Assembly (NCBI GenBank): GCA_002772695.1
Contig: PFDI01000003.1
Span: 11,914-75,913, forward strand
Source of the DNA: Candidatus Pacebacteria bacterium CG10_big_fil_rev_8_21_14_0_10_44_54
Lineage (GTDB): Bacteria; Patescibacteriota; Microgenomatia; UBA1400; PJMF01
DNA: 64,000 nt
Reading direction: 5' to 3'
In this document: one piece after another, positions 13,037 through 48,239 of the stretch
Position numbering within the stretch: the stretch's first letter is position 1
Layout: each line of letters starts with the position of its first letter
The notes under the pieces: generated by a model
Seen by the model: the letters and a program-made list of their open reading frames with translations, nothing else
The model's database searches: none
What the model was told of the DNA's origin: nothing
Made by a program: the position numbers and the translations under genes

Positions 13037-13042
13037 TAAATC

Positions 13043-14691: not shown

Positions 14692-14693
14692 TT

Positions 14694-15269
14694 ATGATCG
14701 CATTTCTTACTGGCACACTCCATCAAGTCGGGACTCCACTCATCCTTCTGGTTGGCGGTGTCGGCTATAGTGTACGAGTAGCAGAAAAACATCAATCTCT
14801 CTGGAGCGTTGGTCAAAATTTATCACTGTGGATCCATACCCACGTTGCCGAGACAAAGTTTGAGTTATTCGGTTTTCCAGACCAAAAAGAGAAGGAACTA
14901 TTTTTACTTTTACTCCAAGTGTCTGGAGTAGGCCCAAGCACTGCCTTGCAGTTGGGGGCGATCGGAAGTGAAAAAATCTCACAGGCGGTTCGCGACGGGG
15001 CTGTGCGCACATTTACTCAAGTTCCTCGGGTGGGAAAGAAATTAGCACAAAAAATAATCATAGAGCTTGGCAGCAAGCTTGGGGCAATAGAAGAACTACA
15101 ACTAGGTACACTCGATACTGATCGCGCACTACTGCTCGAGGCTCTGCTTTCACTTGGATATGAAGAACAACGTGTATACGACGTAGTCCGCAAAACAAAT
15201 ATGGACAACCAAACGCTGGAGCAAGCACTCAAACAAACCATGCAAACAATTGGAACAACGAAAACATGA
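14694..15269 (+). CDS. ruvA: Holliday junction DNA helicase RuvA
   Basis: MIAFLTGTL...LLVGGVGYSV...ELFLLLLQVSGVGPSTAL. Confidence 0.85.
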   Translation: MIAFLTGTLHQVGTPLILLVGGVGYSVRVAEKHQSLWSVGQNLSLWIHTHVAETKFELFGFPDQKEKELFLLLLQVSGVGPSTALQLGAIGSEKISQAVRDGAVRTFTQVPRVGKKLAQKIIIELGSKLGAIEELQLGTLDTDRALLLEALLSLGYEEQRVYDVVRKTNMDNQTLEQALKQTMQTIGTTKT

Positions 15270-32168: not shown

Positions 32169-32204
32169 CTTTTCTTTTTTTATCACTGTTTTTGTAAGTC
32201 ACTA

Positions 32205-32229
32205 ACACGGTATTTTCGTGTTTTTTTTG
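32205..32229 (+). terminator. putative rho-independent terminator (5-bp stem ACACG/CGTGT, 7-nt loop, T8 tail)
   Basis: A hairpin followed by TTTTTTTT, read directly. It sits at the end of the 131-bp intergenic region before mraZ. Confidence 0.4.
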
Positions 32230-32268
32230 TATTTACTTCTTGATATGAAGAGTCATAATGTTGCCTGA

Positions 32269-32287
32269 TGGTAAATAGTGGTAAACT
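32269..32287. promoter_or_regulatory. tandem direct repeat TGGTAAA-N3-TGGTAAA (10-bp period) immediately upstream of mraZ: candidate MraZ operator and/or tandem extended -10 (TGgTAAACT) elements
   Basis: Two exact 7-mers are spaced one helical turn apart and end 13 nt before the mraZ ATG. Confidence 0.35.
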
Positions 32288-32299
32288 ATCTTATAGTTA

Positions 32300-32725
32300 A
32301 TGTTTATTGGAAAATATTACTACACACTCGAAACAAAGGGAAGAGTTTCACTTCCTAAGCCGTTTCGGGTTGCCCAAAAAAACTGGATAATTACTAGAGG
32401 TTTAGATGGCTCACTGTTTCTATTTCCGGACAGCGTTTTTCAATCTGAGGTAGAGAAACTCTCAAAATACTCAACCAATCAACGAGCTGTCAGAGATGCA
32501 ATCCGTCTCTTGAGCAATGACGCATCAGAACAAACACCAGATAAGCTTGGCAGGATTAGTATTCCTGAGCACCTTATTGCAGCGGCAGGGCTACAAAAAA
32601 ATGTCGTGATTGTCGGCAGCCTAAATAAAATAGAGATCTGGGACAGAGATACGTACCACGAATACATGGACGAACTCGGCAATAACGCTGAATCAACCGT
32701 CGAACAAATTGATAAACTAATATGA
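32300..32725 (+). CDS. mraZ: transcriptional regulator MraZ
   Basis: MFIGKYYYTLETKGRVSLPKPFR...TRGLDGSLFLFP. Two MraZ half-domains are present. Confidence 0.9.
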   Translation: MFIGKYYYTLETKGRVSLPKPFRVAQKNWIITRGLDGSLFLFPDSVFQSEVEKLSKYSTNQRAVRDAIRLLSNDASEQTPDKLGRISIPEHLIAAAGLQKNVVIVGSLNKIEIWDRDTYHEYMDELGNNAESTVEQIDKLI

Positions 32726-33609
32726 ACCGCAATAAACACACGCCCGTTTTGCTTGAGGAATCACTAGAATTTCTGAAGATAGAACCAAACGATACAATCG
32801 TGGATGCGACGTTTGGTGGCGGAGGTCACACTGCAGCCATGCTCAAAGCAGGAGCTACAGTAATTGCTTTTGATTGGGATAAAGAAGCAATTACACAAGG
32901 AGTCGCACGGTTTAAGCCCCAGATACAACAAAAAAAACTCTATCTCGTACATGAGTCATTTTCTAAGCTAACCGAAGAGGTGGAGAAAATTGCAAAAAAC
33001 ACCCATCTGAGTATTTCAGCTGTCTTATTCGATTTTGGGACCAGCACAGAGCAACTCATGTCTGCAGATCGAGGATTTAGTTTTATGGGTAATGGTCCAC
33101 TCGATATGAGAATGGATACAAGACTAGCGGTCATGGCAAAAGATATTCTGGCTGTAGTGCCAGAAAAACAACTGGAGCAATTATTTCGAGATTTAGCCGG
33201 TGAAACACAGGCAAGACGCATTGCAAAAGCGATAAAAAATGCACCACAACCAATCACTACCACAACACAACTTGTTAGCTGTATTCAGAGTGTGACTCAC
33301 AAAAAGTCTGGCTTACTACATCCTGCAACCAAAATATTCCAAGCACTTCGTCTGGCGGTAAATGGTGAACTCAGCGAAATTCAGCTTGCGTTACCCCAAG
33401 CACTCTCTCTAGTAAAAAAAGGTGGCAGAGTTGTCTGCATTGCCTTCCATGAAGGGGAAGATCGAATTGTCAAACAACAATTTGCACAGTGGGATAGCTG
33501 TAACCGGGTAAAAAAACTACAAAAAAAAGCAATCAAGCCAAGCGAGCTCGAACTACAAAAAAATCCTCGAGCAAGAAGCGCCAGACTACGAGCGGTAGAA
33601 AAACTATGA
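32722..33609 (+). CDS. rsmH: 16S rRNA (cytosine1402-N4)-methyltransferase RsmH
   Basis: HTPVLLEESLEFLKIEPNDTIVDATFGGGGHT. Confidence 0.9.
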   Translation: MNRNKHTPVLLEESLEFLKIEPNDTIVDATFGGGGHTAAMLKAGATVIAFDWDKEAITQGVARFKPQIQQKKLYLVHESFSKLTEEVEKIAKNTHLSISAVLFDFGTSTEQLMSADRGFSFMGNGPLDMRMDTRLAVMAKDILAVVPEKQLEQLFRDLAGETQARRIAKAIKNAPQPITTTTQLVSCIQSVTHKKSGLLHPATKIFQALRLAVNGELSEIQLALPQALSLVKKGGRVVCIAFHEGEDRIVKQQFAQWDSCNRVKKLQKKAIKPSELELQKNPRARSARLRAVEKL

Positions 33610-33905
33610 GAAAAATATATCTTTACACCTACTATGGGCTTTTGGGCATTGCCTTGTTTAGTCAGGTGGTAAATGTACTTATCACAGAATCAGTTTGGGT
33701 AAGAAGAAATACTTCTTTCAACAAAGCAATAACAACACAAGACGCACTCATCTCACAACGAAAACGACTCGAAAATGAACTCGCACGGATTAGCTCGCTG
33801 ACTGAACTCGAGCAAGAATCTCGACTACTCGGATATGAGCCAATCAACAAAACTATTGTAATCGCAAATCAAACGAAACTGGCTGATACACTTGCCGTAC
33901 ACTAA
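33606..33905 (+). CDS. ftsL: cell division protein FtsL/DivIC-like (single TM + coiled coil)
   Basis: Small bitopic protein positioned between rsmH and the PBP gene. Confidence 0.5.
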   Translation: MRKIYLYTYYGLLGIALFSQVVNVLITESVWVRRNTSFNKAITTQDALISQRKRLENELARISSLTELEQESRLLGYEPINKTIVIANQTKLADTLAVH

Positions 33906-35623
33906 TGAGAGGGAAAGTTGTCATCTCACTGATTTTTGCCTGTTCATTTAGCATTATTGCTCGACTATTTTTTTTGCAGGTTATTTCCGCAAACGAACTC
34001 ACAAAACAAGCAAACAAACAGTATGGACAACAAATTAAAAGTGTTGGTAGTCGAGGCAGTCTTTATTTTTCTGACGGATCCTTACTCGTTGGAAACCAAA
34101 CAGTCTATCGATTATTTGCTGAGCCAGCCTTGTTTACTCAGTCTCCTGAAGAAATTGCCGAAATCCTGGCCTCACTTGTTTCTACAGATCTAGAGCGCTA
34201 CGAAACAGCCTCAGCTAGTGCCCAAAGCGAAATACAACGTGATCTTGCTACCGAATTTATTCACAAACTAACAGCAGAAAATAAAAGTTGGATTGGGCTC
34301 AAAGAACGGGTTAGTGAAGCTACTAAGCAAGCAATCGAACGCAAGCAAATTGCTGGAATTGGATTCGATGACTATGAAGTAAGATACTATCCAGAAGCGT
34401 CGATGGCCGCACAACTCACAGGCTTCATCGGCAAAACAGAAGTAGGAGAGGATATCGGCTACTTTGGAATTGAGGGCGCACTCGAAAAAGAACTCCAACC
34501 ACAACGTGTTCAAAATAAAATCAGCCGTGATGCTTTGGGTGGCAAACTGCTTTCTGACAAGCAAGACTTTGTGTCACTCAATGGCAGAGATATTACTACT
34601 ACTCTCAGCAGAGATATCCAGCGCATCTTGGAGAGAGAGCTGAATGATGGCATTGCGCGCTACGGTGCAATTGGCGGAGAAGCAATCGCGTATGAACCAA
34701 GCACGGGCAAGATTCTTGGACTTGCAGCCAGTCCTACATTTTCTCAGGAAAAATTCTATCAGTTTCCCTCAGAAAGATATAAAAATCCATCACTAACTAC
34801 GCTGTATGAACCGGGGTCGACTTTTAAAATCCTAACTGTGGCAGCTGGAATCGACTCACAAACAATTACTCCAGAAACTACCTGCGACACTTGTGCTAAA
34901 CCACGCCAATTTGGCACTTACACAATCAGAACATGGAATGACGTCTACTATCCAGATATCACTATGCGTGAGGCCCTCGCAAAATCAGATAATACAGCGA
35001 TGATCTTTATAAACGAAAAAATGGGCAGTGAAAAGTTTGTTGAGTATCTCCGCAAATTTGGTATAGGAAGAGAATTGGGGATAGATCTCCAAGGAGATAG
35101 GGGTACACCCTTTCCAACCAGCTGGCGTCCAGTTGAAACTGCAACACGCTCGTTTGGTCAAGGAATCACCGTATCTAGTCTTCAGTTGGTAAGAGCTGTA
35201 GCTGCAGTTGCACATGATGGCAAACTCATGAAGCCACAAATAGTTTCTGCGGTCTTTGATCCAGCCACCGGCGAATCCCATCAAATTGCTCCTATAGTAG
35301 AAGAGCAGGTTATTACGCCTGACTCAGCTAGAATACTCCAAGACATGCTCGTGTACGCTGCAGAACACGGAGAAGCTCAATGGACCTACTCAAAAAAAAT
35401 TCCCGTTGCAGGAAAAACAGGCACGTCGCAAGTTGCTGAAGCGGGTGGGTATAAAGAAGATGCGACAATCACGAGCTTTATCGGCTTTACCCCACAGCAC
35501 AATGCAGACTTTCTACTTTTTGTTAAATTAAATGAACCAAGCACTTCTCCCTGGGCAGCTGAGACTGCTGCCCCACTTTGGTTTCGGATTGCAGAGCAAA
35601 TCGCTCTGACGCTCTACAACTAG
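33905..35623 (+). CDS. ftsI: class B penicillin-binding protein (FtsI-like transpeptidase)
   Basis: An N-terminal TM segment, an STFK motif (SxxK), an SDN motif and KTGTS. Confidence 0.85.
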   Translation: MRGKVVISLIFACSFSIIARLFFLQVISANELTKQANKQYGQQIKSVGSRGSLYFSDGSLLVGNQTVYRLFAEPALFTQSPEEIAEILASLVSTDLERYETASASAQSEIQRDLATEFIHKLTAENKSWIGLKERVSEATKQAIERKQIAGIGFDDYEVRYYPEASMAAQLTGFIGKTEVGEDIGYFGIEGALEKELQPQRVQNKISRDALGGKLLSDKQDFVSLNGRDITTTLSRDIQRILERELNDGIARYGAIGGEAIAYEPSTGKILGLAASPTFSQEKFYQFPSERYKNPSLTTLYEPGSTFKILTVAAGIDSQTITPETTCDTCAKPRQFGTYTIRTWNDVYYPDITMREALAKSDNTAMIFINEKMGSEKFVEYLRKFGIGRELGIDLQGDRGTPFPTSWRPVETATRSFGQGITVSSLQLVRAVAAVAHDGKLMKPQIVSAVFDPATGESHQIAPIVEEQVITPDSARILQDMLVYAAEHGEAQWTYSKKIPVAGKTGTSQVAEAGGYKEDATITSFIGFTPQHNADFLLFVKLNEPSTSPWAAETAAPLWFRIAEQIALTLYN

Positions 35624-35653
35624 CATTTGCTTAAAGTGCTTTATAATGATGAC

Positions 35654-36871
35654 ATGCTAGCGCAAGTAGCCTACCTATTAAAACGCCCCCTTCACTTTGT
35701 GAAAACCGGCTTGTTGCAAGGCTTACCAGCACAAATTCAGACAAAATTTCCTGAAAGGAAACTACGAGTCATCGCTATCACCGGCACTGATGGTAAAACA
35801 AGCTCCTCGACTCTTTTACAGCATGTCCTGCTTTTTGCAAAACGCAAATCAGGACTCATCAGCACAATTGGCTTTTTTCTCGGAAAAAATCCAAGTGACT
35901 CGGGATTGCATGTTACCGCACCTCAGCCAAAAGACCTGTATAAATTCATGCAGGAGCTGGTCAAAAAAAAATATGAGTTTTTGGTTCTAGAGACAACTTC
36001 GCACGGTTTGTATCAATATCGTACTTGGGGAATCCGACCAGAGATTGCAGCAATTACTAACATTGCTCGCGAACACCTTGATTATCACCGCACCTACAAA
36101 CAGTATGTTGCGGCAAAGTCTCTGTTGCTCAAAAATGCAAAAACAATTGTACTCAATGCAGATGATTTTTCCTTTCCACTTTTGAGCAAACAAACAAAAG
36201 AGAAAAAAGTTCTCACATATAGCTCAAGTGATCGCCTGCCTGTTGGCGTTACAAAAGCAATTCGCGCTCGATTTCCAGAGCAGTATAACCAACAAAACGC
36301 ACGAATGGTCTTTACCATATGTCAAATACTTGGGATTTCTATTCAAGATTTTATTCAATCCCTCTCGTCGTTTCAGCATGCTCCAGGCAGAATGCAGTGG
36401 CTTCAGCTCAACAAAAAGTTTGCTGTTATCGTAGATTTTGCACACACCCCACAAGGTGTCGCAGCCGTATTAACAGCTTTAAAAAAACTTCAGACCACCC
36501 AAAATAAGCTGGGGAAATTACTTGTGGTTCTTGGTTCAGCTGGCTTGCGAGACAGGGAGAAGCGTCCAGAAATGGGAAAAGTAGCAACCGAACTTGCCGA
36601 CCTAGCTATTTTTACAGCTGAAGATCCACGTACCGAAGATGTCTGGTCAATCATCAGGCAAATGAAAGAACAACTTAGTGCCAACCACAATAAAATTGTC
36701 TCAATTGCAGACAGAAAGAGAGCTATTGCCTTTGCTTTGGCAGCTGCAAAAGCAAACGATATTGTTGCAATTCTTGGCAAAGGTCACGAGCAGAGCATGT
36801 GTTATGGCACCAAGGAAATTCCTTGGGATGATGCTCGTGTAGCGACAGAACTGGCCAAAAAACAATTATGA
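35654..36871 (+). CDS. murE: UDP-N-acetylmuramoyl-tripeptide ligase MurE-like with shortened N-terminal domain
   Basis: VIAITGTDGKTSSS (P-loop), DFAHTP, and C-terminal AGLRDREKRPEMGKVATELADLAIFTAEDPR (the MurE DNPR region). The ATG at 35654 lies 6 nt after TATAAT (leaderless); an alternative TTG start is at 35627. Confidence 0.7.
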   Translation: MLAQVAYLLKRPLHFVKTGLLQGLPAQIQTKFPERKLRVIAITGTDGKTSSSTLLQHVLLFAKRKSGLISTIGFFLGKNPSDSGLHVTAPQPKDLYKFMQELVKKKYEFLVLETTSHGLYQYRTWGIRPEIAAITNIAREHLDYHRTYKQYVAAKSLLLKNAKTIVLNADDFSFPLLSKQTKEKKVLTYSSSDRLPVGVTKAIRARFPEQYNQQNARMVFTICQILGISIQDFIQSLSSFQHAPGRMQWLQLNKKFAVIVDFAHTPQGVAAVLTALKKLQTTQNKLGKLLVVLGSAGLRDREKRPEMGKVATELADLAIFTAEDPRTEDVWSIIRQMKEQLSANHNKIVSIADRKRAIAFALAAAKANDIVAILGKGHEQSMCYGTKEIPWDDARVATELAKKQL

Positions 36872-37848
36872 GACAACCAGAAATACTTGTCATCGGCGGC
36901 GGAACTGGTATTTACCCAGTCGTATCTGCTCTAAAACAATTGTCCGTAAAAATTACTACTATCATTGCTGTATCCGATTCCGGTGGTTCCACAGGCAGAA
37001 TCAGAGATGAGTTTGGATTTCCCCCAGTCGGTGACTTGCGCCAATCGCTTGCCGCACTTGCAAGTCTTGATAGCCAAAGAGCAATTCAAGAACTATTGCT
37101 CTACAGATTTGAAAGGGGCAGTGGACTCAAAGGCCATAATCTTGGCAATCTTATCCTCACAGCTCTACAAGATAAATATCGATCAACTACCAAAGCACTT
37201 GAGGTAGCACAACAAATTTTCCGCATTGAAGGGAATGTTATCCCGAGCACCGACACTGCAGTTAATCTTAAAATTACATATCAAGACGGCACCGAAGTAC
37301 TTGGAGAACACCACCTAGATAAAGCGATAAAAAAACCAAATAAAATTGCAAAAGTCTCACTTACTCCAAAATGCAAGGTGAATCCTGCCGTTACAAAAGC
37401 ACTATCCAAGGCAGACCTTATTATAATTGGTCCAGGCGACCTTTATGCTAGCCTCATAGCTGTACTGGTTACTCCAGGACTATCTCAGGCTTTGGTGCAT
37501 TCAAAGTCGCCAATTTGTTACTTTCTTAATCTTATGACTCGACAAGCACAGACTCATGATATGACTGCCACCGACCACGTAACAGCAATCGAAAGAATAC
37601 TCGGTTTTCCCCTTACCAAAATTATCATTAACACTGACCCCATACCCCCTGAAATTTTGACTGTTTATGCTGCGCAACAAGAATTTCCCGTTACAGACGA
37701 TGTGACAAACGACGATCGCATACTTCGTAAACCACTGTTGGAAAAAACAATTCACAAGCAATCAAGTTCGGATTCCGTACAGCGCACATTACTGCGTCAT
37801 AGTAGTAAAAAAATCATCCCAGTGATTAAATCACTTTTGGCAATATGA
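36868..37848 (+). CDS. yvcK: YvcK/GlmR (UPF0052, CofD-like) family protein
   Basis: LVIGGGTGIYPVVSALK...AVSDSGGSTGRIRDEFGFPPVGDLRQ. Confidence 0.8.
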   Translation: MRQPEILVIGGGTGIYPVVSALKQLSVKITTIIAVSDSGGSTGRIRDEFGFPPVGDLRQSLAALASLDSQRAIQELLLYRFERGSGLKGHNLGNLILTALQDKYRSTTKALEVAQQIFRIEGNVIPSTDTAVNLKITYQDGTEVLGEHHLDKAIKKPNKIAKVSLTPKCKVNPAVTKALSKADLIIIGPGDLYASLIAVLVTPGLSQALVHSKSPICYFLNLMTRQAQTHDMTATDHVTAIERILGFPLTKIIINTDPIPPEILTVYAAQQEFPVTDDVTNDDRILRKPLLEKTIHKQSSSDSVQRTLLRHSSKKIIPVIKSLLAI

Positions 37849-39224
37849 ACTTCTTTCCCTACCAGCACGCACATCTTGTCGGTATCAAAGGTGTGGCGAT
37901 GACTGCCTTGGCGCAACTACTGCGAGATTGTGGCACCTCGGTTACTGGCAGTGACGTCGCAGAAGAGTTTGTAACGCAAAAAATGCTCACCCAACTGCAT
38001 CTCAAAATCCAAATCTCATTTGCTGACAAACTGCCAGATAAAACTGACTGCGTTATTTATACCGCGGCGCACCAAGCGATCAACAATCCTCAAGTGCAGG
38101 CAGCGCTTACCAAAAAACTACCTGTGTTTTCCCATGCTGAAGTTCTGGCTCTTTTCTTTAATCAGAAACATGGTATTGCTGTTTGTGGTGTCGGGGGTAA
38201 ATCAACAATTTCTGCAATGATTGCTTGGATCCTTACCAAGTTGCGGCAAAATCCATCATATGCGGTGGGAGTAGGAAAAATCATTGGACTCAAGCAAACT
38301 GGCAAGTATGCTAAATCGAGTAAAATTTTTGTCGCAGAGGCAGACGAATACGTAACTAATCCTACAGAGCCTAACCCACAACTTCGGGTTGCTCGTTTCT
38401 CGTACTTGCGACCAAGCATTGCTGTTTGTAGCAACATATTACATGATCATCCCGACGTCTATGCCAATGAAGCTGCTACACAAACAGTTTTTAATCAGTT
38501 TTTTGGACAGATAAAAAAGCCAAGAGTCCTCATTCTTAATTCTGCATCAGAAAAGTTACTCACTACAAAAGTTGCTAAACTAATTACCTACGGAGTTAAC
38601 GCTCATGACACCTATTTTCTTGAAAAAAATAGTGAGACACGAGATAAAGTAGTTACGACTACACTCCACTACAAAAATACTACTTATAAAGTATCACTAG
38701 CAGTACCTGGTTTTTTTAATTTACTAAATGCGACGGCAGCTATTGCGGCCTGTGTAGCTGCTGGTCTACCAATTGCTGAGTGCATAGAGGCCATACGCAC
38801 ATTTGCTTCAACCCAACGTCGTTTTGAAAATAAAGGGATACACAATGGCGTGCAGTACTACGATGATTATGCTCATCATCCAAGTGAAATTTTGGCTACA
38901 ATAACCGCAGCAAAAGACTGGGAACCAAACAAACGGATTGTTTTTGCATTTCAACCACATACCTACTCTAGAACAAAAAAATTATTTTCAGAATTTTCAG
39001 AGGTACTCAGTCGTGCAAATGAAATGCTCTTGCTCCCAATCTATGCCTCAGCTCGAGAACAAGCAGATACAAGCATACAAAGCGAAATGCTATTGCCTTC
39101 TGCCAAATCGCTCTCGGGCATTGCAGAGCTTGCAGAGTGGTGCAAAAAAGAGTTAAAGCCTGGCGACGTTTTTATCACACTTGGAGCAGGCGATATTTAT
39201 CAAGTACATGAGTTGTTACAATAA
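37845..39224 (+). CDS. murC: UDP-N-acetylmuramate--L-alanine ligase
   Basis: HLVGIKGVAMTALAQLL...VCGVGGKSTISAM. Confidence 0.9.
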   Translation: MNFFPYQHAHLVGIKGVAMTALAQLLRDCGTSVTGSDVAEEFVTQKMLTQLHLKIQISFADKLPDKTDCVIYTAAHQAINNPQVQAALTKKLPVFSHAEVLALFFNQKHGIAVCGVGGKSTISAMIAWILTKLRQNPSYAVGVGKIIGLKQTGKYAKSSKIFVAEADEYVTNPTEPNPQLRVARFSYLRPSIAVCSNILHDHPDVYANEAATQTVFNQFFGQIKKPRVLILNSASEKLLTTKVAKLITYGVNAHDTYFLEKNSETRDKVVTTTLHYKNTTYKVSLAVPGFFNLLNATAAIAACVAAGLPIAECIEAIRTFASTQRRFENKGIHNGVQYYDDYAHHPSEILATITAAKDWEPNKRIVFAFQPHTYSRTKKLFSEFSEVLSRANEMLLLPIYASAREQADTSIQSEMLLPSAKSLSGIAELAEWCKKELKPGDVFITLGAGDIYQVHELLQ

Positions 39225-39228
39225 CATC

Positions 39229-40302
39229 ATGCGGACATGGAAAAATATACTCCAGCAAGCCTGTCCCAGCGTCGCCTTTCGGGCAAACGAACCGCTCGCG
39301 CATCACACAACTGTAGGCATTGGTGGACCTGCTGAGTTGTTTTGCAGTATTTCGACCAAACAAGACCTCACGGCCGTATTGCAGATAGCAATACAAGAAA
39401 AAATCCCTATTACCATACTCGGTTGGGGTGCAAACACACTAATAGCAGATCGAGGTATTACCGGTTTAGTCATAAAAAATACAACCAACAATCTAAAAAT
39501 ACTAGACCAAAATCTAACCCCAAAAGATCCTGAACAACTTACTGCTCGCTGGCAAGCTGCAACAGCCGACACTAACATGCCACAGTTCCAAGATCTTGAC
39601 TACGACGAGAAATCGGCAGAACAAGTTTTGGTTGAGATCGATTCCGGAGCAGCACTGCCTGTGCTGATTCAAAAATTGGTGCGACAAGGCATTACTGGCC
39701 TGCAATGGTTCACCAAGATACCAGCTACGCTTGGTGGAGCAGTGGTAAATAATATCCACGGTGGTACACACTATATTTCTGAATTTGTTGAGTCGGTAGA
39801 AGTACTTGATGCATCAGGAAATAAACAAACACTACGGGCTAGCCAACTCGAATTTGACTACGATTACTCTAGATTTCACCACACAGATGAGTACTTACTG
39901 ACACTCAGACTGCGTCTGTATCGAGGAGATCAAGAACGAGCGCAAGCCATAATCACAAAATGGTCCAGACAAAAACAAAAACAACCGCCTCGCTCGCTTG
40001 GTTGTGTCTTCCAAAATATTACTGCCAAACAACAGCGAGAACTTGCGCTACCAACCCCCAGTATTGGCTATCTAGTCGACCAGGAACTTGGTTTGGCAGG
40101 TACAAAAGTTGGTGATGCAGAAATTTCAAAATTGCACGCTGCGTTTATAGTAAACACTGGCAGAGCAACGGCTAGCGAGTATCTTGCCGTTATGAGACAA
40201 ATCCACCAAGCGGTATACATAAAATACAATGTTTCACTCAAGCCTGAAATTTTTTTTAAAGGCTTTACCCAAGAAGAACTAGCGTTCCTTACTCCGCTAT
40301 AA
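39229..40302 (+). CDS. murB: UDP-N-acetylenolpyruvoylglucosamine reductase
   Basis: EPLAHHTTVGIGGPAELF (FAD-binding domain) and the MurB C-terminal domain. The start is taken at the first ATG after the murC stop. Confidence 0.85.
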   Translation: MRTWKNILQQACPSVAFRANEPLAHHTTVGIGGPAELFCSISTKQDLTAVLQIAIQEKIPITILGWGANTLIADRGITGLVIKNTTNNLKILDQNLTPKDPEQLTARWQAATADTNMPQFQDLDYDEKSAEQVLVEIDSGAALPVLIQKLVRQGITGLQWFTKIPATLGGAVVNNIHGGTHYISEFVESVEVLDASGNKQTLRASQLEFDYDYSRFHHTDEYLLTLRLRLYRGDQERAQAIITKWSRQKQKQPPRSLGCVFQNITAKQQRELALPTPSIGYLVDQELGLAGTKVGDAEISKLHAAFIVNTGRATASEYLAVMRQIHQAVYIKYNVSLKPEIFFKGFTQEELAFLTPL

Positions 40303-41627
40303 TGAATACTATGAATACATTTAAGATTGTTGGCGGCAAACCGCTTTTTGGCTCTGTTCGCATCGGCGGAGCAAAAAATGCCTCATATAAGTTGATGCTG
40401 GCAACACTTCTCGCCCATACTCCTTCACGCATCCTTAATTTCTCGCATATTCAAGATGTTGCTACCGTCGGCAAAATCATCACATCACTCGGCGGCATGG
40501 TAAAAGCCGTGGGTGAACGAGCTCTAGTTATTGACCCAAAAAATCTGCACAAATTTGAACTCTCGAAAGCAGTTGGTTCAGAAGGTCGATTCTCAAGTAT
40601 GTTCATTGCACCGCTGCTCGCTCGATTTGGTCGGGCGATTGTGCCAATCCCCGGTGGTGACAAAATTGGCAAGCGACCACTCAATTGGCACTTTGATGGG
40701 CTGCGCGCACTCGGTGCAGAAATTACCCTTAAAAATGGAGTTTTCTATGCTCGAGCAGAAAAACTTCGTGGCACTGTGTACCGCTTCCACAAGAACACAC
40801 ACACTGGTACAGAGACGGTTTTGTTGGCTGCAGTCCAGGCTGAAGGAATAACAAGACTCGAAAATGCAGCCGAAGAACCAGAAATTGACGATCTCATCAA
40901 TTTTCTCATTGCCATGGGGGCAAAAATCACCCGACCAGAAAAACGAGTACTTGAAATTGATGGTGTAGCAAAACTTCGTGGTGCCATACACAAATTGATG
41001 CCAGATCGCAATGAAGCTGTCAGCTATGCATGCGCTGCACTGGCAACAAAGGGAGATATTATCATAGAAAACGCCAGAGCAGAGCATCTAGAATCATTTT
41101 TAGAACAACTCAACAAGATTGGCGCCGGCTATGAACTGGGGTCCTACGGTATTCGATTTTTTTATAAAGGAAAACTTATTGCAACTGACATAGAAACTCG
41201 CCAAGCTCCTGGATTTATGACAGATTGGCAACCGATTTGGGCTACCCTCATGACTCAAGCAACAGGTACAAGCCGTATTCATGAAACCATTCACGAAGAT
41301 CGCTTTCAGTACATTAAAGAACTGCAGGCAATGGGTGCACAAATCACAACTTATCAGCCAAAAGTAACAAATCCTGAAAATTTGTACAATTTTGAGTATG
41401 CTAAAAGCAACCACGACACACCACACGCCATAGCTGTCACTGGTCCAACAAAACTAAAACCTGGACAATTTGCCGTAAAAGACCTGCGCCATGGTGCCAC
41501 GCTTGTCATTGCTGCTCTGACCGCACCTGGTACATCATACATTACTCAAATTCAACACATTGATCGCGGATATGAGTCGCTTGACGAGAGACTACGATCT
41601 CTTGGCGCAGAAATTGCTAGAACGTAG
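40302..41627 (+). CDS. murA: UDP-N-acetylglucosamine 1-carboxyvinyltransferase
   Basis: FKIVGGKPLFGSVRIGGAKNA...PGGDKIGKRPL (EPT family). Confidence 0.9.
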   Translation: MNTMNTFKIVGGKPLFGSVRIGGAKNASYKLMLATLLAHTPSRILNFSHIQDVATVGKIITSLGGMVKAVGERALVIDPKNLHKFELSKAVGSEGRFSSMFIAPLLARFGRAIVPIPGGDKIGKRPLNWHFDGLRALGAEITLKNGVFYARAEKLRGTVYRFHKNTHTGTETVLLAAVQAEGITRLENAAEEPEIDDLINFLIAMGAKITRPEKRVLEIDGVAKLRGAIHKLMPDRNEAVSYACAALATKGDIIIENARAEHLESFLEQLNKIGAGYELGSYGIRFFYKGKLIATDIETRQAPGFMTDWQPIWATLMTQATGTSRIHETIHEDRFQYIKELQAMGAQITTYQPKVTNPENLYNFEYAKSNHDTPHAIAVTGPTKLKPGQFAVKDLRHGATLVIAALTAPGTSYITQIQHIDRGYESLDERLRSLGAEIART

Positions 41628-41639
41628 TATCATTGTCAT

Positions 41640-42686
41640 ATGCAGTCTCTTGGCATTGCTTTTGGCGTACTTCTATTTTCATTCATAGTCACATCTATTT
41701 TAATAATTCCATTTATTAATTTGCTGTATTCCTGGCGATTTCGCCGCAAATCACAAATTACTGCGGATGTCTTTGGCAAGCTAACACCAGTTTTTAATCG
41801 TTTCCACGCAAAAAAAGCCGGTGTTCCAATCGGCGGAGGACTACTAGTTATACTGGTAGTTTCAATTCTCTTCGCCCTCATCTTGCCGCTAGTGAAGTTA
41901 TTTGGCCAAGAGGTAACCAGTGTTCACCGTGACATTGGTGCCGAGATAAATATAATCTTCTTCACCTTTTTGTCATTTGGCATCCTCGGACTCTATGACG
42001 ATATTAAAAAATTCTTTCTTCTCGAAAAAGAAGGTTTTTTTGGTCTGCGTATGAAGCACAAGTTTTTTCTCCAGCTCATACTTTCGCTGATTATCAGTCT
42101 AATGCTCTATCAAAACCTTGGCATCTCATTCATTAACATTCCATTTGTCGGTACTTTCAATCTAGGCTTGATGTTTATTCCATTTGCTACCTTCACAATT
42201 TTGGCATTTGCTAATGCAGTAAATATTTCTGATGGTCTTGATGGCTTGGCGTCGGGATCACTCATGATTTGTCTATTCGGCCTGTGGCTGCTTTCAGCCT
42301 CAATTCTTGATATTCCACTCTCATTATTTATCGCAATCTGGATTGGCTCATTGATTTCATTTTTGTACTTTAATGTCTATCCAGCGCGGATATTTATGGG
42401 TGACGTCGGCTCATTAGCTTTTGGTGCTACCTTGGCGGTAGTTGGCTTATTACTCGGAAAAGTTTTCGCGCTTCTGATTATTGGCTTTATATTTGTTTTG
42501 GAAATTACCTCATCATTTTTACAGCTGCTCTCAAAACGCTTCCGCAAGAAGAAATTATTTCCAGCTGCTCCCTTTCACCTCACCCTACAAGCTCAAGGCT
42601 GGGAGGAACCAAAAATTGTGCAACGTGCCTGGATTATTCAAATCTTATTGACTATTTTTGGCGTATGGTTGACCGTCGTACGATGA
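41640..42686 (+). CDS. mraY: phospho-N-acetylmuramoyl-pentapeptide transferase
   Basis: NAVNISDGLDGLASG...MGDVGSLAFGA. Confidence 0.9.
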   Translation: MQSLGIAFGVLLFSFIVTSILIIPFINLLYSWRFRRKSQITADVFGKLTPVFNRFHAKKAGVPIGGGLLVILVVSILFALILPLVKLFGQEVTSVHRDIGAEINIIFFTFLSFGILGLYDDIKKFFLLEKEGFFGLRMKHKFFLQLILSLIISLMLYQNLGISFINIPFVGTFNLGLMFIPFATFTILAFANAVNISDGLDGLASGSLMICLFGLWLLSASILDIPLSLFIAIWIGSLISFLYFNVYPARIFMGDVGSLAFGATLAVVGLLLGKVFALLIIGFIFVLEITSSFLQLLSKRFRKKKLFPAAPFHLTLQAQGWEEPKIVQRAWIIQILLTIFGVWLTVVR

Positions 42687-43768
42687 AGCGAAAAAAAAAT
42701 TCTCATGCGAGCGCTGCACGATGGCTTTTTTTGTACACAGCCCTTCTAAGCTTGGTCGGACTTATATTTGTGTTCGAAGGCTCAATTATCGAAAGCTATC
42801 GAACTTTTGGTACTCCATATGCTCTTATCACTCAACAGCTATTTGGTGTATTCATCGGCATTGGAGCCTTCGCGCTTGCTCTGCTACTGCCGAGCAAAAT
42901 TTGGACACGGCTGGGAACACCGCTCTACATATTTGGAATTATCTGTCTGTCACTAGTATTTTTGCCGATAATTGGCCTCGAACTTAATGGAGCACGACGC
43001 TGGATTAACCTCGGCTTCATGGTGATTCAACCTGTTGAATTACTAAAATTTTGCCTCATTGCTAGCTTTGCTCACTGGTTTGCAAAAAAACAAAATATTC
43101 GTTCTTTTCTTTTTTTAAGCGCTATCCCTCTCACACTTTTGCTGCTACAACCAGATTTTGGATCAACACTTTTGGTCGGAAGTATTGCCATTGGCATTAT
43201 TTTTGTCGCCGGTGGGTCAATAAAAAAATTGCTTGTTGCAGGTTTATTTTGTTTGCCGCTACTATTGCTTGCTATTTTTGGCTCTTCGTATCGACTTGAG
43301 CGGGTAAAAACTTTTTTTAATCCAAGTAGCAATACACTAAGTACTGGCTTTCATGTCAAACAAATAACACTCGCATTTGGCCATGGAGGCCTTTTCGGTC
43401 AAGGCATAGGCAATTCTCAACAAAAACAATCCTACTTACCAGAATCAAGTACAGACTCTATTTTTGCCATTGTCGGGGAAGAGCTTGGTTTTGTCGGTAC
43501 TTCTCTCATCCTTATACTATTTACCTTGCTATTTTTTCAACTCTATAAGGCAGCAATGGGACTTGAAAAAAAACCTGAATCACGACTGGTAGTGTACGGA
43601 ATTCTTTTTTGGTTTGCGGGTCAAACATTTCTCAATTTATTGGCAACTGTGGGACTTATCCCACTGACAGGAGAACCGTTGCCATTTTTTTCGTATGGTA
43701 GATCGTCTTTGATCATGATATTGTTTGCCTCAGGAGTAGCCATTCGTGTTGCTCGAGAAAATACATGA
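42683..43768 (+). CDS. ftsW: SEDS family peptidoglycan glycosyltransferase FtsW
   Basis: Polytopic membrane protein with PLPFFSYGRSSLI. Its ATG overlaps the mraY stop (ATGA). Confidence 0.85.
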   Translation: MKRKKNSHASAARWLFLYTALLSLVGLIFVFEGSIIESYRTFGTPYALITQQLFGVFIGIGAFALALLLPSKIWTRLGTPLYIFGIICLSLVFLPIIGLELNGARRWINLGFMVIQPVELLKFCLIASFAHWFAKKQNIRSFLFLSAIPLTLLLLQPDFGSTLLVGSIAIGIIFVAGGSIKKLLVAGLFCLPLLLLAIFGSSYRLERVKTFFNPSSNTLSTGFHVKQITLAFGHGGLFGQGIGNSQQKQSYLPESSTDSIFAIVGEELGFVGTSLILILFTLLFFQLYKAAMGLEKKPESRLVVYGILFWFAGQTFLNLLATVGLIPLTGEPLPFFSYGRSSLIMILFASGVAIRVARENT

Positions 43769-44886
43769 AAATACTAACAACTGGCGGACACCTCACGCCC
43801 GCTCTTGCTTTTATTGATTATGTGAGAGAGCAGGCGGGCGCAGAATTCATTTTCTTGGGTCGCGAATTTTCGCAGATACAAAACAATCAGCGATCACAGG
43901 AAATTCAGGCCATTGCTACCGATCGAAGCATTCCATTTATTGCCTTTCAATCCGGAAAATTAACATTCCACTCACCCTGGCAATTACTGCTACAGTCATG
44001 GCAAGTAATAATTGGCATTATCCGAGCATTCAAGATAATCTCAACAGAAAAGCCAGATGTAGTTGTTTTGTTTGGGGGCTATCTAGCTGTTCCCGTTGCC
44101 CTAGCAGCTTGGCTGCAACATATCCCGGTTGTCACTCACGAACAAACAGCTGTAGCTAGTTTGAGCACTCAAATTATTGGCATTTTTAGTAAAAAGATTG
44201 CTGTATCACACAAGCATCTACTTGAAAAATTTTCAGAAAAAAAAGTAGTCTTCACTGGCAACCTACTGCGACACAAGCTCGAAAACAACCAGCCCAAAAA
44301 ACCAAGTTGGCTTGGCAGCCTCGAGCTACCTGTTATGTATATCACTGGCGGCAACCAAGGTTCTCAGGTAATAAACGCCACTATCGCTCAAGTCTTGCCA
44401 CAATTGACGCGTGACTGGACTGTGGTGCATCAATGCGGCTCGCCCACCAAAAAAACTAATTATGCGCAACAGCTTCATGACGCAGCTAGTCAGCTCTCCC
44501 ACCCTGCACAAGCCCGTTACTCAGTGCGTGAGTGGATAACAGAAACTGAACTTGCTTGGCTTTACACTCATGCTCAGATCGTTATTTCTAGAGCAGGAGC
44601 AAACACCCTGTTTGAACTGCAACACTTTGGACTGCCAGCAATACTTATCCCACTACCATTCTCACACCAACAAGAACAACTACGCAATGCCGAGATAGCA
44701 GCAAAATCTGGCAACTCAATTATCTTGCCACAAAATAAACTTAATCCTGATAGTCTTATAACTGCAATAAAAAATCTAGCTACCCACCGATCTGCCCGAC
44801 GAAAAAAAAATCTCCGACAAAAAACAAATACCCAGGGCAATAAAAATCTCTGGAACATTGTTTCTTCACTTGCTAAAGCTGTATGA
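43765..44886 (+). CDS. murG: UDP-GlcNAc:undecaprenyl-PP-MurNAc-pentapeptide GlcNAc transferase MurG
   Basis: MKILTTGGHLTPALAF...ISRAGANTLFE (GT28). Confidence 0.85.
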   Translation: MKILTTGGHLTPALAFIDYVREQAGAEFIFLGREFSQIQNNQRSQEIQAIATDRSIPFIAFQSGKLTFHSPWQLLLQSWQVIIGIIRAFKIISTEKPDVVVLFGGYLAVPVALAAWLQHIPVVTHEQTAVASLSTQIIGIFSKKIAVSHKHLLEKFSEKKVVFTGNLLRHKLENNQPKKPSWLGSLELPVMYITGGNQGSQVINATIAQVLPQLTRDWTVVHQCGSPTKKTNYAQQLHDAASQLSHPAQARYSVREWITETELAWLYTHAQIVISRAGANTLFELQHFGLPAILIPLPFSHQQEQLRNAEIAAKSGNSIILPQNKLNPDSLITAIKNLATHRSARRKKNLRQKTNTQGNKNLWNIVSSLAKAV

Positions 44887-45575
44887 GATTTTTGAAAAAA
44901 AAGTTGATACTTGTTTCTATTGCTACCATCCTGACATTTGTGCTGATAACAAGGCTTTTGCGGATACAACACATCACGTGTAGTATTGAGAAAACCGAAG
45001 TTTGTTCCACAGAAGAACTGTACAAATTGCGTGGCACGAGTATCTTCTTTGTCAACCTATATCAAAACACAAGTATTGCTGAATACGAACGAGCACACAA
45101 TATTGCGCTCAAGTCATATCACATTTCGCTTCCTCAAACACTCGAGGTTGATTTTACAAGAAAGCCAGAGCTTTACACTGTGCTGCTTAATGATACCGAT
45201 CGTTACTCCATTTCAGACTCTGGCACTGCAAAATTACTTACAGGATCAAACGAAAACACAGATATACAAGTTATAACTCCGACACTATTTACAGAACAAA
45301 ATACTACTATATTACCAATATATCATCATTTTCTTGTTGCTTACGTCAAAATAATAAAGCAAGACAAAGAATTGCCAAAACGCGTACTGTTTGAAACTGA
45401 ATTTGTAGAACTACAACTATCCTCTGGAGGCGTCGCATTTTTGCCATACGAGCACACACAAGAAAAAATCAAAATCCTTCAGCACATTTTGGACTCACAA
45501 GCCCTCTCTACACTTCCCGCACCAATCAAAGAAGTTGATTTACGGTTTGACCTACCAGTACTACGCACGCAATGA
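44883..45575 (+). CDS. ftsQ: cell division protein FtsQ/DivIB-like (TM + POTRA)
   Basis: An N-terminal TM segment and its position between murG and ftsA. Confidence 0.5.
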   Translation: MRFLKKKLILVSIATILTFVLITRLLRIQHITCSIEKTEVCSTEELYKLRGTSIFFVNLYQNTSIAEYERAHNIALKSYHISLPQTLEVDFTRKPELYTVLLNDTDRYSISDSGTAKLLTGSNENTDIQVITPTLFTEQNTTILPIYHHFLVAYVKIIKQDKELPKRVLFETEFVELQLSSGGVAFLPYEHTQEKIKILQHILDSQALSTLPAPIKEVDLRFDLPVLRTQ

Positions 45576-45606
45576 GAATTTTGCTATGCTACTGCAACAG
45601 AATAAT

Positions 45607-46911
45607 ATGCCATCACACTCGATAGTTACCGCAATTGATCTCGGCACAGATAAGTGCGCCACACTTATAGCTTCGGTAGATGCATACCAGAAGTTACAAG
45701 TGCTTGGCGTTAGTGTCGTGCCAGCACGTGGCATGCGCAAAAGTCAAATTATCGATCTAGAAAAAGTGCTCGATACAATTACACAAAGTCTAGACGGGGC
45801 AGAGCGTATGGCTGGTCTTGAAGTAAAGTCAGCATACATCTCGGTTGGTGGCACTCATATCCAGTCACTCAACTCCAAAGGAGTGGTAGCTGTTGCCTCA
45901 CCACAACAGGAAATCACCAAGTCAGATGTAGAACGAGTTACCGAAGCTGCGCGCGCGCTTTCGCTACCATCAGATCGACAAATCATTCATGTCATTCCCA
46001 ATGCCTACAAAGTTGACTCTCAGGAAGGCATTAAAGATCCTGTCGGCATGACTGGTGTCAGACTTGAATCTGAAGCGCATATCATTACTGGTCTCAATAC
46101 AACGCTCATCAACATTGAAAAGTGCTTGCTTGATCTTGGTTTACAGATTGATGACTTTGTTTTCTCTGGTCTGGCAGCTGCCGAGGTTACACTAACTGAA
46201 ACTGAGAAGGAGCTTGGTGTTGCCTTAGTTGATATCGGTGCAGGCTCAACTTCAATTTGCGCCTATCTTGAAGGCTCGCTAGTTTTTTCTGCCTCATTAC
46301 CAGTTGGCGCTCGTCACATTACTCAAGACATTGCGCTTGGCTGTCGCGTCAGTCTCGAGACAGCAGAAAAGATTAAGGTTGCGCTTTCAGAATCTGGCGA
46401 AGATGTTCAAAAACCACTACCCGGAGAATCAAAAGAAGACTTCACTGCACGCAAGAAAAAAAGTGACGTGCTAAAGCTACAGGATTTTGGCGTTATCGAT
46501 AACAACGATGAAGAACTTTCCAGAAAAGCAATTGTTGAGGGAATCATGATTCCAAGAATACAAGAAATCTTTTCACTAATAGAAACTGCTCTGTCTGAAG
46601 CCAATGTGCTCGATGAGATTCCTGCCGGTATTGTCCTAACTGGTGGAGGTGCTAGTACACAAAATATGGCAAACATCGGAAAAAAAGAACTTCGAATGGC
46701 AGTGCGAGTTGGCGAACCCCTAGCACTTAGCGGTCTAACAAACGACATTCACAAACCATCCTTTGCTACAGCAATTGGCTTGCTCGAGTATGGTAGAAGG
46801 CAAGGCGGTAGCTCACAGAAGCGATCCTTTTCGCTTTCTTCACTTCCAAGTTTTAATATTGGCGCGGTACTTACTTCTATAAAAAAACTACTTGCTTCAT
46901 TACTACCATAG
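45607..46911 (+). CDS. ftsA: cell division protein FtsA
   Basis: IVTAIDLGTDKCATLIAS (actin-fold phosphate-1 motif). An alternative upstream ATG is at 45586. Confidence 0.9.
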   Translation: MPSHSIVTAIDLGTDKCATLIASVDAYQKLQVLGVSVVPARGMRKSQIIDLEKVLDTITQSLDGAERMAGLEVKSAYISVGGTHIQSLNSKGVVAVASPQQEITKSDVERVTEAARALSLPSDRQIIHVIPNAYKVDSQEGIKDPVGMTGVRLESEAHIITGLNTTLINIEKCLLDLGLQIDDFVFSGLAAAEVTLTETEKELGVALVDIGAGSTSICAYLEGSLVFSASLPVGARHITQDIALGCRVSLETAEKIKVALSESGEDVQKPLPGESKEDFTARKKKSDVLKLQDFGVIDNNDEELSRKAIVEGIMIPRIQEIFSLIETALSEANVLDEIPAGIVLTGGGASTQNMANIGKKELRMAVRVGEPLALSGLTNDIHKPSFATAIGLLEYGRRQGGSSQKRSFSLSSLPSFNIGAVLTSIKKLLASLLP

Positions 46912-46927
46912 TTTCTACGTAATCCGG

Positions 46928-46955
46928 TTGATTCTAGGATGATAAATGATACACT
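46928..46955 (+). promoter_or_regulatory. putative ftsZ promoter: -35 TTGATT, 16-nt spacer, extended -10 TGaTACACT
   Basis: Read from the sequence. The ATG lies 15 nt downstream of the -10. Confidence 0.45.
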
Positions 46956-46970
46956 GCGAGACATATCGAT

Positions 46971-48239
46971 ATGGCACTAGTTAAACCCTCAAATACTACT
47001 TTCGCAAAAATAAAAGTAATCGGCATCGGTGGTGGTGGTAGTAATGCGGTTAACTCGATGATTATTTCCAAGCAGATCCAAGGTGTTGAGTTTATTGCCA
47101 TCAACACTGATGCTCAAGCACTACTCACCTCCCAAGCAGAAACAAAACTACAAATTGGCTCCAACTTTACCAAAGGACTTGGTTCTGGCGCAGACCCTGA
47201 AGTAGGCAAAACTGCAGCCGAAGAGTCATATGAAAAATTGAAAGACTTGCTGTATGACACTGACATGGTGTTTATTACCGCTGGTATGGGGGGAGGCACT
47301 GGCACTGGTGCCTCACCTATTGTGGCTGAAATTGCCAAGCAATCAGGAGCCCTAACAGTTGCCGTAGTCACCAAGCCATTTGCATTTGAGGGCAACAAGC
47401 GGATGCACGCAGCCGAAGAAGGCATTAATTTCTTGCGTGAGACTGTGGACACGTTGATTGTGATCCCCAATCAACGACTCATGGACGTAGTAGATAAAAA
47501 AATGACCCTGCTTGACGCATTTCGTTTGGCAGACAATGTCCTTGGACAAGGCGTGCAAGGCATTTCTGATCTGATTACTGTGCCCGGACTAATCAATGTT
47601 GATTTTGCTGATGTTAAAACTATCATGACCGACTCAGGATCTGCGTTAATGGGCATCGGGGAAGCAAGTGGCGAAAACAGAGCTTCAACAGCTGCTCGCA
47701 TGGCTATTGCCTCGCCTCTACTTGAGGTTTCTATCGAAGGCGCTAGGGGAATTCTTTTTAATATCATCGGTGGTGAAGACATGACTATGACAGAAGTTTC
47801 CGACGCTTCTCAGATTATTTCCAACGCAGCCGATCCACAAGCAAATGTAATCTTTGGGGCAACTATCGACGAAACTATGGGTAATAATATCAAGATCAGT
47901 GTAATTGCTACCGGATTTGACGAACAACAAATGGGCTACGCGAGCTCAAGGCGACAGCCATTTGGCGCTTTCAGCAGCGACTCTCAATCTAGACTCTCTC
48001 GATCACAACCATCAGAACCAACTCAGACTAAAATTGATCGAACACCCGATGGCTACACACAGCCGCTCACCACAACACAGATCACATCAAGCAAAACAAA
48101 TGAATCTCCCTTTGTGCAGTCTGATGGCTTTCGATCAGATGAACAGCCAAAATCAGCTATAAAAGCAAAAAGCGCTACTCCAACAACAGAATTTGAAGAC
48201 GAATTTGAAATTCCTGCATTCCTGCGAAAAAAACAGTAG
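46971..48239 (+). CDS. ftsZ: cell division GTPase FtsZ
   Basis: [17 protein letters not shown] and [16 protein letters not shown] (tubulin signature), followed by a long disordered C-terminal linker. Confidence 0.95.

Follow-up and report, generated by a model that had tools for sequence, protein, structure and literature searches.

The analyzed window is a 64-kb stretch of contig PFDI01000003.1 from Candidatus Pacebacteria bacterium CG10_big_fil_rev_8_21_14_0_10_44_54, and the subject of this analysis is the division and cell wall (dcw) gene cluster located on its forward strand at positions 32300–48239. Fifteen consecutive genes on this strand were recognized, in the order mraZ, rsmH, ftsL-like, ftsI, murE, yvcK, murC, murB, murA, mraY, ftsW, murG, ftsQ-like, ftsA, and ftsZ. 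Gene identities were assigned by comparing Pfam and NCBIfam profile scores with curated cutoffs, and they confirmed the gene order given in the first-pass annotation of this DNA, with ftsL and ftsQ being placed by position and a hydrophobic segment. The YvcK sequence of the window was also found, in identical form, on contigs from several groundwater-type metagenomes. With a DUF4012 protein, many glycosyltransferases, and densely overlapping genes, the window has a content in keeping with Patescibacteria.

The cluster begins with mraZ (32300–32725; PF02381, E-value 4e-26) and rsmH (mraW), encoding a 16S rRNA methyltransferase (32722–33609; PF01795, E-value 2e-79). The third gene (33606–33905) codes for a small membrane protein of 99 amino acids (aa), considered FtsL-like on the basis of its position and N-terminal hydrophobic segment. 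It matched no Pfam or NCBIfam family, and an open reading frame (ORF) of 89–99 aa was present at this position in all relatives examined. The ftsI gene (33905–35623) encodes a class B penicillin-binding protein (PBP) with PBP_dimer and Transpeptidase domains, and the STFK, SDN, and KTGT motifs are present in its sequence. Next come murE (35654–36871), encoding a short 405-aa form of the enzyme (TIGR01085, 338 bits versus a cutoff of 257), and yvcK/glmR (36868–37848), encoding a CofD-related protein of 326 aa. They are followed by murC (37845–39224), murB (39229–40302; FAD_binding_4 and MurB_C domains; TIGR00179, 156 bits versus a cutoff of 144.5), and murA (40302–41627; TIGR01072, 437 bits versus a cutoff of 393). 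MurC has kept its N-terminal domain and consists of three domains (PF01225, PF08245, and PF02875); among the NCBIfam models, it scored as MurC (TIGR01082, 339 bits versus 335) rather than as the recycling ligase Mpl. MraY (41640–42686; PF00953) obtained 180 bits with TIGR00445 (E-value 7e-53), slightly under the cutoff of 192.

The last part of the cluster comprises ftsW of the SEDS family (42665–43768; PF01098, E-value 2e-87), murG (43765–44886; N- and C-terminal Glyco_transf_28 domains; TIGR01133, E-value 6e-60), an ftsQ/divIB-like gene (44883–45575), ftsA (45586–46911; SHS2_FTSA and FtsA domains), and ftsZ (46971–48239; Tubulin and FtsZ_C domains). The FtsQ-like protein of 230 aa had no Pfam or NCBIfam match and was assigned from its N-terminal hydrophobic segment, a weak hhalign match (E-value 0.08) to the C-terminal VDLRY region of Escherichia coli FtsQ, and its position, which is kept in relatives. 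Downstream, on the same strand, lie ileS and a second, rodA-like SEDS gene (together 48260–52131), a synteny common to relatives. The starts of murE (35654), murB (39229), and ftsA (45586) follow the gene callers on identical contigs and are later than those of the longest ORFs; the longest murE ORF would begin at a TTG at 35627.

Most neighbors among the 15 co-directional genes overlap or abut, and the spacing between them ranges from −44 to +59 nt. The start of yvcK overlaps the murE stop by 4 nt, and the 3′ end of mraY overlaps ftsW by 22 nt, leaving no room for a murD remnant at this junction. Judging from these overlapping and abutting frames, all 15 genes are probably co-transcribed from a start upstream of mraZ.

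In the canonical dcw cluster of E. coli, the order is mraZ-rsmH-ftsL-ftsI-murE-murF-mraY-murD-ftsW-murG-murC-ddlB-ftsQ-ftsA-ftsZ. The window cluster shares the mraZ-rsmH-ftsL-ftsI start, the mraY...ftsW-murG core, the ftsQ-ftsA-ftsZ end, and the compact co-directional arrangement, but it lacks murF, murD, and ddl, has murC-murB-murA moved between murE and mraY, contains the extra gene yvcK, and encodes MurE without domain 1. Only murE and murC are present out of the four Mur ligase genes (murC, murD, murE, and murF) and ddl expected in a full dcw cluster. The location of murA and murB inside the cluster is shared with the long dcw clusters of Firmicutes; a 17-gene version with both genes occurs in some members of this phylum, the placement of murA within the cluster has been proposed to be ancestral, and many recognized dcw clusters lack some individual genes (PMC8871954).

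The absence of murD, murF, and ddl from the block, which the first-pass annotation had claimed, was borne out by tblastn and Pfam scans of the 64-kb window and its flanks, and no misannotated copy of these genes was found within the block. Searching the window with E. coli MurD, MurF, and DdlB by tblastn returned only murE and murC, and no Ddl. The other window ORFs of at least 150 aa contained no Mur ligase or D-alanine-D-alanine (D-Ala-D-Ala) ligase according to Pfam, with permissive thresholds used for unassigned ORFs; they encoded glycosyltransferases, RuvABC, tRNA synthetases, ParB, GatCAB, and other unrelated products instead. The possibility of a hidden or misannotated murD, murF, or ddl in the window was thus rejected by both scans. 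Likewise, none of the three genes was found in the approximately 10 kb downstream (L012) and 3.5 kb upstream (L013) that are available on longer contigs of the same organism.

The first-pass annotation described the cluster as remodelled. The arrangement is a lineage-wide operon type and not a local feature; the same order was found in five more distant relatives. These loci (L007, L008, L009, L010, and L011) also encode a short MurE of 402–410 aa, and their YvcK proteins are 74%, 69%, 57%, 56%, and 54% identical to that of the window, respectively. L010 and L011 are located on contigs of 1.2 and 1.4 Mb. In L009, murC and murB are fused into a single gene for an 861-aa protein (10948–13533); fusions between Mur genes have been documented (PMC10214165).

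A sister clade of Microgenomates (L015, L095, L096, and L097), in which YvcK is 47%–49% identical to the window protein, has the order murE-yvcK-glmU-like-murC-murB-murA-dgkA-mraY-murI-murD-ftsW-murG-...-ftsZ-ileS-rodA. It shares with the window the murE(short)-yvcK...murC-murB-murA...mraY...ftsW-murG-ftsQ-ftsA-ftsZ-ileS-rodA framework, with proteins 36%–65% identical to those of the window, and differs by four extra genes: a GlmU-like gene of archaeal type that immediately follows yvcK, a dgkA-like gene ahead of mraY, and murI and murD between mraY and ftsW. In addition, MurC of the sister clade, unlike the window protein, is extended at its N-terminus by about 175 aa. The conservation of yvcK in dcw clusters extends to many Microgenomates-type Patescibacteria. 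The gene occupies other positions of the mur block in L016, L021, L099, L101, L115, L120, L122, L127, and L131; in Microgenomates-type loci outside the window and sister clades it follows murA, often beside a GlmU-like gene, murD follows mraY, and some loci have murF before mraY.

The window cluster is a form of the dcw operon that is typical of its lineage but more reduced. Rearrangement of the ancestral cluster would have placed murC-murB-murA between murE and mraY and made YvcK/GlmR a stable member of the mur block, and the window clade would have then undergone further reduction, leaving yvcK without a GlmU-like gene behind it, mraY without a dgkA-like gene ahead of it, and the mraY|ftsW junction empty. 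Several contigs with Patescibacteria-type dcw clusters (L011, NCBI DASPLQ010000012.1, 1.41 Mb; L015; L025; L031; and L035) are publicly labelled as Vitreimonas sp., Pseudomonadales, or Gammaproteobacteria and probably represent misbinned or mislabelled metagenome-assembled genomes.

The clade-specific feature is the empty mraY|ftsW junction: the D-glutamate (D-Glu) module has been lost from the cluster, as have the GlmU-like and DgkA-like genes. L177, a locus whose closeness to the window is similar to that of L010 and L011, has the window order with MurL and a MurD-like gene between mraY and ftsW. For the MurL homologue of L177, the only family match was NF041275, full-length, with an E-value of 2e-78. 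Where E. coli has Asp182 and Lys348, the ligases linked to MurL have Glu and Arg, while those linked to MurI have Asp and Lys; the Glu/Arg pair is the signature of the L-Glu ligase MurD2 (PMC8788868). The occurrence of either murI-murD or murL-murD2 at this place in relatives indicates that the mraY|ftsW slot holds interchangeable D-Glu modules. Pairs of MurL and MurD-like genes between mraY and ftsW were observed at L177:15806–18558 and L025:17823–20472. As in the MurD2/MurL route of Xanthomonas (PMC8788868), L177 and L025 thus have a MurL homologue beside a ligase with the E/R signature, whereas the window itself, with its empty slot, lacks this route. The murL-murD2 type is the probable D-Glu module that the window genome would have elsewhere. 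In a 2021 review (PMC8788868), some Proteobacteria and rare actinobacteria are the only bacteria listed with the MurL/MurD2 route.

The MraY protein encoded next to this slot has a degenerate “HHH” motif: E. coli PIHHHYE corresponds to PFHLTL in the window (residues about 320–325). The motif is equally degenerate, with one His, in all Microgenomates relatives examined, regardless of whether murD is kept. The degenerate motif (FHL) was therefore rejected as a correlate of the empty slot, because relatives retaining murD have it as well.

The assignment of YvcK was upheld by profile searches: the protein scored 267.6 bits with TIGR01826 (cutoff 196) and matched PF01933 with an E-value of 1e-73, while the true CofD model gave only 22.9 bits. 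Residues 1–278 align with the crystal structure of Bacillus halodurans YvcK (2O2Z). In an alignment of 131 sequences, D37, N221, Y267, R306, and R310-H311 were invariant or nearly so, which indicates that YvcK is under strong constraint. Residues D40, D41, and N198 of the Listeria monocytogenes protein have been proposed for uridyltransferase activity (PMC10128056); the equivalence of D37 and N221 to the Listeria residues was read via the B. halodurans alignment. The invariant Y267, R306, and R310 are near the residues that bind UDP-N-acetylglucosamine (UDP-GlcNAc), Y265 and R301 of Bacillus subtilis (PMC6171935), by numbering alone. The window protein belongs to the same family, TIGR01826, as GlmR/YvcK of Firmicutes and CuvA of mycobacteria, and shares the GGGTG, D-x-GGS-x-GR, and N-x-MT motifs. 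It would be expected to have the same role, in the supply of UDP-GlcNAc and peptidoglycan precursors (PMC6171935, PMC10128056, PMC12637504). It differs from its homologues in having Ser in place of the second Asp of the proposed catalytic pair and in its location in a dcw operon, between murE and murC, instead of the yvcJ(rapZ)-yvcK-whiA context; the latter is typical of Firmicutes and actinobacteria and does not define the family.

The link of GlmR to peptidoglycan precursors is already established. The protein binds UDP-GlcNAc and stimulates GlmS (PMC6171935); it also makes UDP-GlcNAc in vitro, and this activity is required in vivo (PMC10128056), and GlmR has been described as an accessory N-acetylglucosamine 1-phosphate (GlcNAc-1-P) uridyltransferase in Firmicutes (PMC10128056, PMC12637504). 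Three comparative observations bear on this role. In 7 of the 150 best MurE representative clusters, MurE is C-terminally fused to a GlmU-type nucleotidyltransferase domain, and the fused domain occupies the position that yvcK has here. Together with the retention of yvcK in the mur block through many rearrangements and its GlmU-like neighbor in several lineages, this ties YvcK to UDP-GlcNAc supply for the Mur pathway. Many lineages share the linkage of yvcK to mur genes noted in the first-pass annotation, and this conservation speaks for a functional connection with precursor supply. Fusions of MurE with the nucleotidyltransferase domain, with MurC, and with MurC and MurB were observed among the MurE representatives P0131, P0212, and P0214 (short MurE), P0127, P0180, P0198, and P0164 (full MurE), and P0123, P0126, and P0139.

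Considering the published work on Firmicute GlmR together with the synteny and fusions described here, YvcK is most likely co-expressed with the cluster to secure UDP-GlcNAc for MurA and MurG. It would serve as an accessory enzyme with GlcNAc-1-P uridyltransferase activity or as a sensor that activates GlmS in response to UDP-GlcNAc, and the two roles may both apply. The first-pass annotation viewed YvcK as a sensor acting on GlmS. This agrees with one of the published roles of GlmR, but the uridyltransferase role (PMC10128056) fits the comparative data at least as well, given the GlmU-like gene beside yvcK in the sister clade and the MurE-nucleotidyltransferase fusions. That YvcK is purely a UDP-GlcNAc sensor tuning GlmS, placed among the UDP-GlcNAc-consuming enzymes so that sensor and consumers are made in step, is possible but doubtful. 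It would accord with the UDP-GlcNAc binding and proposed GlmS stimulation by B. subtilis GlmR (PMC6171935), with the invariance of Y267 and R306/R310, whose closeness to B. subtilis Y265 and R301 is one of numbering alone, and with the conserved synteny with murA and murG. However, glmS was not seen in any locus examined (the loci, rather than whole genomes, were covered), and the neighbors co-varying with yvcK are of the uridyltransferase type (GlmU-like in L095 and L096, MurE-NTP_transferase fusions), not glmS. Moreover, mutants of the UDP-GlcNAc site in B. subtilis show little phenotype (PMC6171935).

Another explanation, which we regard as unlikely, is that yvcK entered the cluster through neutral rearrangement and has no functional link to its neighbors. 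Its position does vary by lineage (after murE, after murA, or before dgkA), and in Bacillus it belongs to the unrelated operon yvcI-yvcJ-glmR-yvcL (PMC6171935). Yet, despite this shuffling, yvcK stays in the mur block in more than 15 loci spanning 35%–74% identity and is often paired with a GlmU-like gene, and genetic data link GlmR to peptidoglycan precursor supply (PMC6171935, PMC10128056). The role of GlmR/YvcK in supplying UDP-GlcNAc is debated, and its stable place in the mur block, beside a uridyltransferase or instead of one, backs this role with independent comparative evidence.

Overall, the block is likely the native dcw operon of a Microgenomates-type Patescibacterium, rearranged and further reduced, with YvcK co-expressed for UDP-GlcNAc and the missing ligases relocated. 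Several observations weigh against this interpretation. The gene content favors neither of the two GlmR mechanisms, and the second Asp of the catalytic pair proposed in Listeria is Ser in 128 of the 131 YvcK proteins. The leader upstream of mraZ (32169–32299, forward strand) contains a terminator-like hairpin (32204–32222) and a −35/−10-like pair (32232–32259), but promoter and terminator elements there are consensus matches only, with counts not above those in shuffled controls, and offer a weak hint of an operon boundary. Searches of the window, of its flanks, and of the 10 kb on either side of yvcK in the five relatives revealed no murD, murD2, murL, murI, murF, or ddl. Finally, among the best 120 matches each to a relative's MurD and to a MurF profile, none was recognized on the five contigs (0.88–1.41 Mb) of the best YvcK hits, of which L010 and L011 were confirmed to carry the cluster. 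The latter result is uninformative rather than negative, since the MurD query was only 27% identical to MurD2 of the nearest relative and the MurF profile was swamped by Daviesbacteria.

The same absences could mean that the clade truly lost MurD/MurD2 (with MurI/MurL), MurF, and Ddl, and either relies on MurC and two-domain MurE alone to make a non-canonical stem peptide or salvages peptides or muropeptides from a host. We consider such a loss improbable. It would be consistent with the failure to find the genes in the window, the fetched flanks, and the five other loci of the clade, with the cleanly empty mraY|ftsW junction where relatives have the D-Glu module, and with the lack of recognized MurD and MurF, among the best 120 matches, on contigs of the best YvcK hits. 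A general dependence of Patescibacteria on hosts for many of their building blocks, as is widely assumed, also speaks for this possibility. On the other side, the MurD and MurF searches covered the best 120 matches with a MurD seed as distant as noted above, and the sister clade, which keeps murD, also has ddl and murF outside the cluster. The clade has kept MurA, MurB, MurC, two-domain MurE, MraY, MurG, FtsW, and FtsI; of these, the intact MraY, MurG, MurC, and MurE are conserved throughout the clade, MurC scores as MurC and not as Mpl, and FtsI retains the transpeptidase motifs, which act on D-Ala-D-Ala donors. The intact FtsI motifs and the conserved MraY, MurG, MurC, and MurE argue that the pentapeptide precursor is still made and favor relocation over loss. 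Also improbable is an extended version of the loss scenario, in which the whole Pacebacteria-like clade lacks MurD/MurD2 (MurI/MurL), MurF, and Ddl, obtains the precursor by a shortened or salvage route, for example from host peptides, and relies on YvcK as the sole UDP-GlcNAc-forming uridyltransferase.

We think that relocation of the missing ligases is much more likely than their loss; murD or murD2, murF, and ddl are, we infer, most likely encoded elsewhere in the genome of roughly 1 Mb. If they were truly absent, the clade would have an unusual pathway for wall precursors. A metagenome scan with a MurD alignment placed L097, a sister-clade organism with a GC content of 38% and murD in the cluster, at the top among at least 600 matches. 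The L097 contig (JGI Ga0066639_10010376), with murI-murD in its cluster, comes from the same sample, Ga0066639, as L002, a contig carrying the YvcK gene of the window; binning by sample alone could mix the two organisms.

The shortening of the MurE N-terminus noted in the first-pass annotation proved to be the absence of a whole domain. The window protein contains nothing equivalent to residues 1 to about 104 of E. coli MurE, and alignments with Protein Data Bank (PDB) structures start at about residue 100 of full-length MurE. The P-loop is located some 42 residues into the protein, and the in-frame stop upstream of it is only 52 codons away. No PF01225 match was found in MurE, and a hidden Markov model of the N-terminal domain detected nothing. 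The protein is nevertheless a MurE: models of other ligases gave 93 (MurD), 75 (MurC), and 69 (MurF) bits, and the best PDB and fold matches were to MurE. The P-loop GTDGKT and other columns are invariant, while the meso-diaminopimelate motif DNPR reads EDPR, with Arg kept, and does not allow the amino-acid specificity to be assigned.

In the AlphaFold model of MurE (predicted local distance difference test, pLDDT, 93; predicted template modelling score, pTM, 0.90), one long N-terminal helix of about 28 residues precedes two domains superposing on solved MurE, with TM-scores of 0.78–0.82 when normalized to the query and 0.64–0.68 when normalized to the longer targets. The N-terminal domain of solved MurE enzymes contacts the UDP part of the substrate. 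Three-domain MurE of E. coli (1E8C), Mycobacterium tuberculosis (2WTZ/2XJA), and Staphylococcus aureus (4C12) share with the window protein the central ATP-binding and C-terminal domains, the P-loop, and the motif Arg, but have an N-terminal alpha/beta domain where the window protein has the single helix. Since the catalytic motifs are intact and the confident model has a helix in place of domain 1, the short MurE is presumably active.

Among the genome-scan matches listed, which did not include the genome of the window, the short MurE was present in 14 of the 15 Patescibacteria loci, and no locus labelled as belonging to another phylum had it. The Patescibacteria with this form include Daviesbacteria, Beckwithbacteria, Saccharibacteria, and a Peribacter-like genome, and 90 of the 150 best representative clusters of MurE had it as well. 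Judging from these sequences, two-domain MurE is a widespread conserved form of Patescibacteria, not a gene defect. The trait is found across Patescibacteria whether yvcK is adjacent or not.

The adjacency of the two genes nevertheless raises the idea that YvcK compensates in trans for the missing UDP-binding domain, within a complex in which it holds the UDP of the substrate. Bacillus YvcK binds UDP-sugars (PMC6171935), and murE and yvcK overlap by 4 nt in the window and are adjacent in the window clade, the sister clade, and L177. However, Daviesbacteria (L017, L018, and L027) and Saccharibacteria (L041, L058, L059, and L074) have a short MurE with no yvcK in the locus, in L021, L101, and L127 a short MurE is combined with yvcK after murA, and L016 encodes a full-length MurE with yvcK as the next recognized gene about 1.8 kb downstream. 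Short MurE and adjacent yvcK therefore do not co-vary, and the replacement of MurE domain 1 by YvcK in trans was rejected as very improbable.

Like MurE, the MurF proteins of Microgenomates-type genomes are without the usual N-terminal domain (L027:11759–12994, L017:11749–13035, L031:19095–20564, and L021:11917–13194). In Daviesbacteria, it is about 392–400 aa long and contains the Mur_ligase_M and Mur_ligase_C domains only, while the proteins of L021 and L031 start with a long stretch that is hydrophobic and membrane-like. With two-domain MurE, and apparently MurF too, occurring across Patescibacteria, one may ask how such enzymes hold their UDP-linked substrate.

In the literature searched, which did not cover the main dcw survey including the candidate phyla radiation, there was no mention of YvcK/GlmR in Patescibacteria or of two-domain MurE there, and an earlier description is possible. 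The interest of the locus lies mainly in YvcK as a stable operon member, in two-domain MurE (and MurF) across Patescibacteria, and in the empty D-Glu slot. The dcw cluster is a marker of deep bacterial evolution, and its Microgenomates version, with yvcK, GlmU-like and dgkA genes and an exchangeable D-Glu module, shows how it is edited in reduced genomes.

Some features of the surrounding DNA were also recorded. The rodA-like gene (51073–52131) lies directly 3′ of ileS with no class B PBP gene adjoining, and the ftsZ-ileS-rodA order is kept in the sister clade and other Microgenomates loci (L095, L096, L099, and L115). Directly 5′ of mraZ, an ORF of 262 aa (31380–32168) had no family match even at permissive thresholds; ORFs of 262–270 aa without a Pfam match occupy the same place, after glyS, in L007–L011. 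About 28 kb of sequence upstream (765–29377) constitute a surface-glycan locus with many GT1, GT2, and GT4 glycosyltransferases, PMT_2-type and Wzy_C-type membrane proteins (one of 1046 aa), a GDP-mannose-type nucleotidyltransferase, an epimerase/dehydratase, a Bac_transf priming transferase, and a DUF4012 protein; ruvC-ruvA-ruvB are embedded in it at 13873–16258. About 7.3 kb past the 3′ end of the window, a large serine recombinase (Resolvase and Recombinase domains) is encoded on the minus strand just downstream of rplS (L012:18727–20280) and may mark the boundary of a mobile element or prophage.

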